Virus record (IMG/VR): IMGVR_UViG_2718218305_000006
Length of the DNA: 64,000 bases
From: a virus
Lineage: Duplodnaviria > Heunggongvirae > Uroviricota > Caudoviricetes
Reading direction: 5' to 3' (one strand)
Shown: piece after piece, positions 60,001 through 63,000 of the stretch
Layout of the letters: each line of letters opens with the position of its first letter
How positions within the stretch are numbered: the first letter of the stretch is position 1
Made by a program: the position numbers

Positions 60001-63000
60001 CTCAGCCAGCAGGTGCTGCGTTACCAGTCCGGGAAGCCGCAACACAGGAAGAAAATAAAACAGAAACTGTGGCGGTCACAGTGCAGTCACAGCCGTTGTT
60101 CACCAGAAAACATCCGGATGGTCTGATTTTACCATCGCTGCATGTGGCTAACCGCGAGCTGCGCCGGGCAAAAGGTCAGGTTCAGAAGTGGGAGCGTGTC
60201 TGCGCCGCGCTGCGGGAGCTGAACAAGCACCGGGATATTGTTCGGCAGATTGTCGATTCATCCGGTCGTATTGTGTCGGAAAAGTGATTGCCGGAGGCGC
60301 TTATGGCGAAACCTTTTACACACGAACAGCGTGAAGAACTGAAGGCCCGAATTATCGGGCTGGTACGCAAAAATGAACGCATGACGATATCACAACTGGA
60401 GAGAGCGACGGGAGCAGGCTGGCATTCAGTCAGACGTTGCCTTGTGGATGTACTGGCTTGTGGCGATTTATACATGCCCGGTAAATACGGTGTTTTTGCA
60501 TCAGAACAGGTGTATCGCGTATGGCGTAAGGCAGCGGAGAAAACAACCGACCAGACATTGATTCGAAAGTTACCAGACGGAGAAATACGCCGCTATGACA
60601 GGCATCAGAACATAATTTGCAGTGAGTGCCGAAATAGCGAAGTTATGCAGCGTGTACTGGCGTTCTGTCAGGGGAATTTTTAGGAGGTGGTGCTGTGAGT
60701 GAAATTAGCTATCAGGCTTCAATTGCCGCTGGCATTCGCATCAAAGGAGAGGTGCATGGAAATAAAACCAGAAGATGAGTTAAGTAATATTGTTTTATTT
60801 CCGGTAAAAGAGGATGACCCACGTAATCAGGTTAATTTTCTTTATGAGCCATCGGAAAGACCATATTGCCATCACGCCTCTGTCCGGGTTGACGAAAAAG
60901 AGCGTCAGGTCCGCTGTAAAATCTGCGGTGCAGTTGTGGAGCCATTTGACTGGATGCTCTCTGTGGCGAAAAGAGAAACCAGACTGGCAGATGATGTAAG
61001 GCTCTTGCGTCAGGAGGAGCGGGAAAGGCGAAAAAATATAGAAAAGCTAATTCAGATTGAGCGTAACGCGAAAGCGCGGATACGCAGGGCGACAAAATCC
61101 AGAACTGAATAATTAAATTTAGCTCTGTTAAAAATTTAATCCTTAACCGGAGGGGGGGGGGGAGGCGCCCTCAGAACATCAGGAGGCTGTCCGGCAGGGC
61201 GGTAGTTAAATGCGAAAGTTCAAAATAATTATTGAAACGGGAATAGCCGGTGGAGATTTCGAGGATGAATTCGAAGTGGATGATGATGCGACGCCTGATG
61301 AAATACATGACGAAGCAAAAGATATTTTCTTTAACTACTGCAATTACTCATATCACGAAATAAAAGACGAAGAGGAAGAATAAAATGGCTGATTTTGCTT
61401 CAACTAAATATAACGCCAATTTTGAAGAATGGCATGAACTGTTAATGGACTATGTAGAGTTACCGCGGTGGAAGCATGGCGTGATATGAAGTTGCATAAG
61501 AAGTTGCTTTCTTTATCTGGAAATAATATATCCTCTAACGGGAAAGAAATAGAAAATGGTGACTTTAATGAACCCAACCCCCAATAAAAAGAGGTTGGGA
61601 ATACTATGGTTAAATTAGAGTAAATATCTTGGATATCTAAAATTAGGTTACTTTTACGCCTATAAAGGTGTAATCATCCATTATGTTTTTCTCAATCCTT
61701 TTTCTTAAACTACTCGCAAAAGCTGTTGGTGAGAGCATTGTCTTCTCAGAAAACCTTGGTCTGACATCCCAATGCTTATAGGCACCATCAGTCATTGCAT
61801 AGAGTTGAAGATAGCCATTATAAATTAGCTGGCTAATCGGAAAAGACATTAACTCAAAATTCAAATCCGTTGTATTTGATAAAGCATTCGTTAGGACTGA
61901 AGATAGCCGTTCTTTATGATTTCTTAAATTACGTAATTTATGTTCACCAGAATCAAGGAGTTCTTGATATCTCGTTTGATCAGTGGTTAACTGATTTAGT
62001 TTATTGTTTTTATTGAAGTATACTCGGCAATCACCGGAATGACCAATTAACACTTCATTTTTTTTGATCTGAACAATTGTTAAGGTTGTGGCAGTGCTAA
62101 TATCTAAATTGTCAATTTCTTTTTTAGCTGAATGAAATGCACTTTCAATTGAGAAAAAGGAAGTGCCTAGCGTGTGTCTAATGCCACGAATGGCTGCATG
62201 AGATGCAAGCATTGAATGTTCAGAGGAACCAACCCCATCAGCTACTGCAAAGACAATGTTAAAATCGCTATCAAAAGATGGCGGTAAATAAAAGTCTTCA
62301 TTTTCTTTTTTTTGGGGTTGTTTTAGGCTAAAACATGCCATTTCAATTATGTTCTTCATGATTTACCTCCCCCGTCACTTTTAAAAAATCTTCCAGTAAC
62401 TCCCGTGTGCTTTGATATCGTTCTTCAGGCCAATGTGCGCAACATTTTGCAATCAATCTTTTTAATTTTTCACTTCTTTCTGTGGGATATATATCAGTGA
62501 TAATTTTACCTGCTGCAAATATGTCACTTTGAAAAGAAAAAAGACCGCTATCATGTATTTCGGGCGCTCGATATCCATCTGTGCCCATGTGATTAGGCTT
62601 AAATTTTGTTTTGATTTCGGCCCGTAAGGTATCTCTGTCTTTTACTAGACCAAAATCAGATATTTTATACTTTCCATCGGCATAATAAAGTATGTTTCCT
62701 GGTTTTAAATCACGATGTATATAGTTGTTTTCATGTATGGTGATAATTCCTTTTAAAATCTGAGTAACAGCAGACTTCCTCTCCGCGTAGTTCATACCAT
62801 TGCGGATGGCTTCATATAAGTTACACTCTGCCAATTCCATAACAAAATAAGGTTTATCACCATTTGTATTAAATAAAACTATTGGCGCTATTGAATCATA
62901 GTTTATTCTATTGAGAGTGCATTGTGTTTTGATCTCAACTAAAAAACGCTGTCTTAAATCAGTCAACTCTTTTATAGCGGTCTTGTCAAAGTCCGGGCAA

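Follow-up and report, generated by a model that had tools for sequence, protein, structure and literature searches.

Does a long homopolymer among the early genes of a prophage act as a genetic switch? The question is raised by IMG/VR virus record IMGVR_UViG_2718218305_000006 (Caudoviricetes). Its 64,000 nucleotides (nt) of DNA, referred to here as the window, contain a run of 11 G residues (the tract) shortly upstream of a small, highly acidic open reading frame (ORF) and close to an oppositely oriented kinase/phosphatase operon. A first-pass annotation proposed that the tract could phase-vary expression by slipped-strand mispairing, and that the acidic protein might be a DNA mimic or an anti-defence factor. 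We favour another reading, to which we give a probability of roughly three in four: instead of a genetic switch, the tract is a near-neutral, slippery homopolymer, situated in a spacer under weak constraint where mosaic modules join.

Direct reading of the sequence places exactly 11 G at 61152-61162 of the + strand, in agreement with the position and length first assigned. The run starts directly 3' of a relic Shine-Dalgarno-like CCGGAGG, 39 nt past the stop codon of a gene for a protein of 118 amino acids (aa), and it ends 47 nt before the ATG of the acidic 57-aa ORF, a distance that had been estimated well at about 50 bp. The + strand order around the tract is TTAATCCTTAACCGGA-G11-AGGCGCCCTCAGAACATCAGGAGGCTGTCCGGCAGGGCGGTAGTTAA-ATG, and two Shine-Dalgarno-like GGAGG motifs bracket the tract. 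The 57-aa ORF belongs to the DUF7167 family and is called the DUF7167 gene below. The elements of this interval are the following.

61113..61209, + strand: intergenic spacer of 97 nt from the 118-aa gene to the DUF7167 gene, with no ORF across it and no promoter, terminator or Rfam family.
61152..61162, + strand: non-coding G11 homopolymer, seen in the sequence; relatives carry G6-G10 alleles, and the common allele has GGGATTTCTGCA.
61181..61186, + strand: AGGAGG Shine-Dalgarno of the DUF7167 gene, 23 nt 5' of the ATG, kept in ~100 loci and a unique match in the window.
61187..61202, + strand: hairpin CUGUCC-GGCA-GGGCGG of 6-7 bp, predicted by folding with a pair probability of 0.7 to 0.85.
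61210..61383, + strand: DUF7167 gene, 57 aa, assigned by Pfam PF23768 and phrog_1997.
61385..61489, + strand: 34-codon ORF, a remnant of a conserved 58-aa gene (phrog_519), identified by alignments; the intact 58-aa protein matches phrog_519.

The tract is the sole run of at least 8 G or C in the 64-kb window. A G or C run of at least 11 arose in 4.7% of 300 first-order Markov simulations of the window (~0.06 runs expected), and 15 of 100 dinucleotide-preserving shuffles gave at least three G9 or C9 matches, the count that G11 yields on its own, the three matches of a shuffle being free to fall in separate runs. The tract is unusual for the window, yet neither extreme nor wildly improbable.

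Comparison with relatives reveals that its length is polymorphic. A 961-nt query around the tract matched 2,250 of 5,426 complete Escherichia coli genomes, with 17 records at least 99% identical, and these 17 genomes, in which identity over the 961 nt reaches 99.6% or more, differ from the window chiefly at the tract. With a 113-nt tract-centred query, the span is 2 nt shorter in 13 genomes and 3 nt shorter in 4. G9 was read directly in 12009, WL1277, YB14-1 and RM12581, and G8 in 28RC1 and Balcarce_24.2; the additional missing base of RM12581 is a 1-nt deletion within the DUF7167 gene, outside the tract. IMG/VR contigs provided five instances of G9 and one of G10, and sister alleles have the form Gn-CA with n = 7 or 8, or Gn-CG with n = 6, all of them linked to the kinase/PP2C phosphatase cassette that follows the small ORFs. 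Lengths of G6, G7, G8, G9 (the commonest), G10 and G11 are thus found between flanks that are 97 to 99.8% identical, and the expectation that the tract is slippage-prone holds good. In the AGGCG allele, the flanks carry 0-1 substitutions per ~950 nt, yet four tract lengths occur; this contrast is what we read as the signature of length instability by slippage. The indel rate of E. coli varies with homopolymer run length (PMC8510543). Pattern scans for the tract allele gave one match among metagenomes and none among GTDB genome contigs, and in a near-isogenic comparison no complete E. coli genome covered at least 80% of 20 kb.

A 10-kb contig, IMGVR_UViG_2740892372_000013 (L004), shows a peculiarity of its own. 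The segment equivalent to 60725-61471 is present twice, ~1.5 kb apart (reverse-complement 4371-6353 and 7107-10013), with G9 in one copy and G10 in the other. The doubling may be genuine, or two prophages may have been fused into a chimera during assembly.

Is the tract, or its count of 11, a product of sequencing? The first-pass annotation had kept an artefact open and pointed to other assemblies as a check for length variation. Since a G6-G10 run stands at the same locus in more than 30 independent assemblies, the tract is no assembly artefact. The exact count stays doubtful: G11 is found in none of the 5,426 complete E. coli genomes, where the best matches are identical save for two missing G, nor does any IMG/VR, metagenome or GTDB contig match it, so that it is limited to the window. 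The true tract might be a G9, miscounted by sequencing or assembly error. Homopolymer miscounts are a familiar weakness of several sequencing platforms, and nearby 1-nt deletions in RM12581 and in the IMG/VR locus L002 demonstrate that differences of this kind occur here, be they errors or real mutations. On the other hand, the tract varies by single steps (6, 7, 8, 9, 10) across independent assemblies, which puts a gain of two within its real behaviour, and the genome of O103:H2 12009, which we take to be Sanger-finished, carries it as well. We consider a miscount rather unlikely on balance; it would bear on the count alone, the tract being real and of the same kind either way.

A widespread allele, CCGGA-GGGATTTCTGCA-CCCTC, has no G run. 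It was read in ATCC 25922 and in other records of the 80-90% identity band of a 121-nt spacer search (786 records, the allele being known for those that were read), and it occurs in 57 of 80 IMG/VR loci. A third continuation past CCGGAGG is TATATCAATG, where the GGAGG is the working Shine-Dalgarno of a 70-aa gene. Because CCGGAGG has differing continuations among prophages, the tract starts exactly at a mosaic module boundary. This boundary right after CCGGAGG (61144-61153; loci L006, L007 and L013), with its three unrelated continuations, is an observation in its own right.

Could the length of the tract act on expression? No ORF of at least 25 aa crosses the tract on either strand, and no ATG, GTG or TTG lies between the tract and an in-frame TAA at 61207-61209, directly 5' of the DUF7167 ATG. 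An N-terminal extension or fusion of DUF7167 through the spacer is impossible because of this TAA, which also rules out an extended DUF7167 comparable to the 84-93 aa entries of the databases. A promoter and terminator scan of 60600-63600 left the surroundings of the tract empty on both strands. No sigma-70-like site lies within 200 nt of the tract on either strand, and none straddles it; the six promoter-like sites of the scanned region compare with 7.9 expected by chance. The check for promoter activity that had been proposed for this neighbourhood therefore finds, as a sequence scan, no sigma-70-like site near the tract. A TTAACC-17 nt-CGCCCT arrangement is without a usable -10 hexamer, as judged by eye. 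With a permissive E-value, Rfam models matched sok alone in 60500-64000, together with two chance-level matches elsewhere and none at the tract.

RNA folding leads in the same direction. Taken as a thermodynamic proxy for expression, folds of G8 to G13 spacers predict an unpaired probability of 0.61-0.70 for the Shine-Dalgarno and 0.55-0.59 for the AUG, and a pair probability of 0.85-0.71 for the hairpin. An in-silico tract series from G0 to G15 displays no switch-like change in the fold. The spacer RNA of the window does not exceed its shuffles in stability (z -0.87), and the common allele has a z of -2.1. The proposal of phase variation does not fare well against a tract that no ORF or promoter crosses and a predicted accessibility of the ribosome-binding site that is near-flat from G8 to G13.

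Two alternative structures were considered for the spacer and rejected. A GAGGG/CCCTC hairpin in which the tract would form the loop loses its pairing in relatives, where the CCCTC arm varies (CCATC, CCCTA, CCTTC) without compensation; because of these uncompensated mutations, the left half of the spacer, tract included, appears to be weakly constrained. Pairing over a long distance, from the stop region of the 118-aa gene to the DUF7167 start, is not kept in the divergent alleles L013 and L014, as judged by eye.

The right half of the spacer holds a candidate split ribosome-binding site, composed of the AGGAGG, the hairpin and the ATG. The hairpin, if formed, places the ATG 7 nt past the stem. 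In ~100 loci the 5' arm alleles CCGCCC, CTGTCC, CCGTCC and CTGCCC all pair with an invariant GGGCGG, G.U pairs included; the changes are one-sided (C to U) throughout, with no true compensatory pairs. In 7 loci, the AGGAGG/hairpin segment lies behind another upstream gene.

Is the acidic protein, rather than the tract, the functional element? The description of a highly acidic 57-aa ORF is well founded. The protein has 20 D+E (35%) against 5 K+R, a net charge of -15 and an isoelectric point of 4.07. It matches Pfam PF23768 with an E-value of 7e-15 and 55.3 bits against a gathering cut-off of 24.4 (residues 2-53 on model positions 1-60 of 60) and, likewise along the whole model, phrog_1997 with an E-value of 7.5e-31, and the identical protein WP_001224661.1 is a "DUF7167 family protein" in RefSeq. 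Homologues at E-values up to 1e-3 form ~100 clusters at 50% identity, nearly all stand-alone proteins of 50-60 aa, with Escherichia, Klebsiella, Citrobacter, Serratia, Yersinia and Pseudomonas as hosts. The family is uniformly acidic (mean charge -12.5) and its substitutions are conservative. Judged from these comparisons, DUF7167 is a genuine conserved phage gene. A CAA to TAA change makes the protein of the window 3 aa shorter than the 60-aa form, and it also abolishes the overlapping stop/start with the next gene that is found in intact loci.

Departures from the intact frame were noticed in several relatives. A 1-nt deletion, AAAGTTCAAAA to AAAGTTAAAA, affects DUF7167 codons 6-7 (~61219-61229) in L101 (E. 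coli O145:H28 RM12581) and L002, and RefSeq annotates a shorter DUF7167 product for RM12581. Frameshifted homologues are also present in the database (P0046, P0052, P0064 and P0068). These cases suggest that DUF7167 decays now and then in prophages, or else they reflect errors of sequencing.

A DNA mimic or anti-defence factor, beside which the tract would be incidental, agrees with the charge of -15 in 57 aa and the acidity of the family, and with the occurrence of this small early-operon accessory gene in many prophages and some lytic phages. Small early-operon accessory genes are the typical niche of anti-restriction and host-takeover proteins. Against this, the protein bears no likeness to a solved DNA mimic or to a characterised protein. 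AlphaFold2, with 48 sequences, yielded a beta-beta-alpha model (mean pLDDT 84), for which a Foldseek search of the PDB retrieved nothing at an E-value of 0.1 or below (best 0.29) and no DNA mimic among the matches. The best PDB profile match, to ribosomal protein L23 (E-value 0.034), is not credible. Foldseek against BFVD retrieved only uncharacterised phage proteins of like size, such as a phAPEC8 protein (E-value 3.8e-4). PADLOC has no match for the small proteins, and a literature search on the name DUF7167 found no paper that mentions the family. A beta-beta-alpha monomer of 57 aa is also small for a DNA mimic unless it is oligomeric. Thus, the structure prediction that had been proposed as a check gives a model without a match to known mimics, charge is the one point in favour of the idea, and we regard such a role as improbable. 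DUF7167 is nevertheless a widespread, very acidic early phage protein that could sensibly be entered, at low cost, into screens for anti-restriction or host-takeover activity.

The second small ORF behaves differently in the conservation check. It had been described as a 33-aa ORF; an ORF is indeed present, but it has 34 codons and is a decayed gene. Its first 26 codons align with the 58-aa protein; past these, 1 nt is inserted near 61463, 17 nt are lost after 61474, and homology stops near 61485, at the cassette junction. The alignments show it to be a frameshifted, truncated pseudogene remnant, cut by insertion of the kinase/PP2C cassette. Of the two small ORFs, the 57-aa one is conserved and the other is a remnant.

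A contingency locus, in which tract length would tune DUF7167 or read-through into the convergent cassette and so divide lysogens into subpopulations, appears very unlikely. The tract does exceed the length at which slippage usually sets in, and it varies among close relatives; the two flanking GGAGG motifs could serve as a ribosome standby site, and C11 on the - strand would be crossed by antisense read-through from the cassette. These points are opposed by the lack of an ORF or promoter across the tract and by the Shine-Dalgarno, hairpin and ATG 19 to 47 nt downstream, which are predicted to be insensitive to tract length. The early operon lies behind a CI-type repressor and is presumably silent in the lysogen, so that a heritable switch would have little to act on. 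Most prophages with the DUF7167 gene lack the tract, and a spacer is altogether absent from Klebsiella, Serratia and Yersinia prophages, in which DUF7167 directly adjoins its upstream neighbour or overlaps with it.

A still longer shot is that the G run between the two GGAGG motifs is a length-tunable ribosome standby or pause site, or the antisense C11 a Rho-loading site for cassette read-through, with slippage setting DUF7167 output on induction; if this were true and DUF7167 were an anti-defence DNA mimic, the prophage would possess a phase-variable counter-defence gene.

The near-neutral homopolymer remains the explanation that we prefer. A CCGGAGG relic at the module boundary would have expanded into a G run in the cassette-bearing lineage, and replication slippage would then have lengthened and shortened the run between G6 and G11. 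The tract would be transcribed within the repressor-controlled early-right mRNA, presumably from the early-right promoter together with its neighbours. It lies outside promoter, ORF and functional ribosome-binding site, and for this reason its length should have little or no effect on expression. DUF7167 would be translated from its own AGGAGG, hairpin and ATG, and insertion of the kinase/PP2C cassette would have left the dead 34-codon remnant.

Several points weigh against this explanation. The tract is longer than base composition predicts (~5% of simulations). Its alleles are confined to the haplotype linked with the kinase/PP2C cassette, which could hint at a functional link; plain linkage accounts for it. 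Folding is blind to G-quadruplex-like or protein-mediated effects, and translation, mRNA stability or transcription elongation may respond quantitatively to the tract.

If near-neutrality holds, a striking homopolymer beside a defence-like cassette would be a by-product of mosaic-junction evolution and slippage, and a false lead would be removed. Its hypervariable length also makes the tract a handy marker by which this prophage lineage could be typed in Shiga-toxin-producing E. coli (STEC).

From ~50.3 kb on, the window is a Rac-like lambdoid prophage, and the tract lies within its early-right operon. Past the repressor/cro divergence, the + strand carries YdaS, YdaT, an O-like replication gene, a DnaC-like gene, DUF1627 and DUF977, followed by the 118-aa gene, the tract spacer, DUF7167 and the 34-codon ORF. 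The same gene order is found in the RefSeq annotation of a near-identical prophage of E. coli O103:H2 12009. On the gene order of these two prophages, it is the backbone early-right operon that holds the tract and both small ORFs, and not a cargo region as had been supposed; the cargo is the adjoining kinase/PP2C cassette. The opposite orientation was seen correctly, with the small ORFs on the + strand and the PP2C and kinase genes on the - strand. The neighbouring features are listed below.

50301-51575, - strand: integrase.
51933-54377, - strand: RecE-like exonuclease.
56591-56980, - strand: CI-type repressor.
60756..61112, + strand: 118-aa gene (phrog_1621), with a weak, sub-threshold zinc-ribbon match.
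61486..63325, - strand: inserted kinase/PP2C cassette, delimited by Pfam Pkinase and PP2C_2, homology boundaries and cassette-less relatives.
61643-62359, - strand: PP2C phosphatase (Pfam PP2C_2).
62343-63137, - strand: Ser/Thr kinase (Pfam Pkinase; PADLOC matches to mad6, PD-T4-6 and Stk2).
63378-63553: sok, type I antitoxin (RF01794, 117 bits).
63566-63703, + strand: hok, type I toxin of 45 aa (HOK_GEF, E-value 1.9e-23).

The cassette is convergent with the early operon and stands in place of variable small genes between the 58-aa gene and hok/sok. In cassette-less relatives, homology to the window ends at 61474 and restarts at ~63320-63335. The hok/sok system is complete (63378-63703, + strand), lies directly right of the cassette on the backbone flank, and is kept in cassette-less relatives. 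Between the early operon and the PP2C stop codon, an inverted repeat CCCAACC...GGTTGGG with a 13-nt loop is present at 61566-61600; it has no clear T-run and is not called by the terminator scan, and it may help to separate the two convergent transcription units.

How does this locus compare with known systems? With the contingency loci of Neisseria, Haemophilus, Campylobacter and Bordetella it shares a G/C run of at least 8 and single-base length steps among near-identical relatives. In contrast to those loci, the tract neither falls within a reading frame nor separates a -35 from a -10 hexamer, it has no plausible gene to switch, and its setting is a repressor-controlled prophage early operon of E. 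coli. E. coli is not known for phase variation based on simple sequence repeats (SSR). DNA mimics such as Ocr, ArdA, Ugi and p56 have strong negative charge in common with the 57-aa protein, to which the PDB fold and profile searches relate none of them. The split ribosome-binding site has a closer parallel. In phage T4 genes 38 and 25, the distance from Shine-Dalgarno to start codon is brought back to normal by an intervening hairpin, and the likeness lies in a long Shine-Dalgarno-ATG gap bridged by a stable hairpin; unlike the T4 sites, the putative one described here is limited to the E. coli lineage of DUF7167. The cassette kinase matches the PADLOC models of the kinase-based defence genes Stk2, PD-T4-6 and mad6, and a defence function is putative here. 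The closest described concept to the cassette is KKP of Pseudomonas Pf prophages, likewise a prophage kinase-phosphatase module (PMC11341870). KKP consists of three genes, whereas the cassette has two, encoding PP2C and a Hanks-type Ser/Thr kinase. The cassette itself is inserted and oppositely oriented, and the tract and the small ORFs stand outside it, in the backbone operon.

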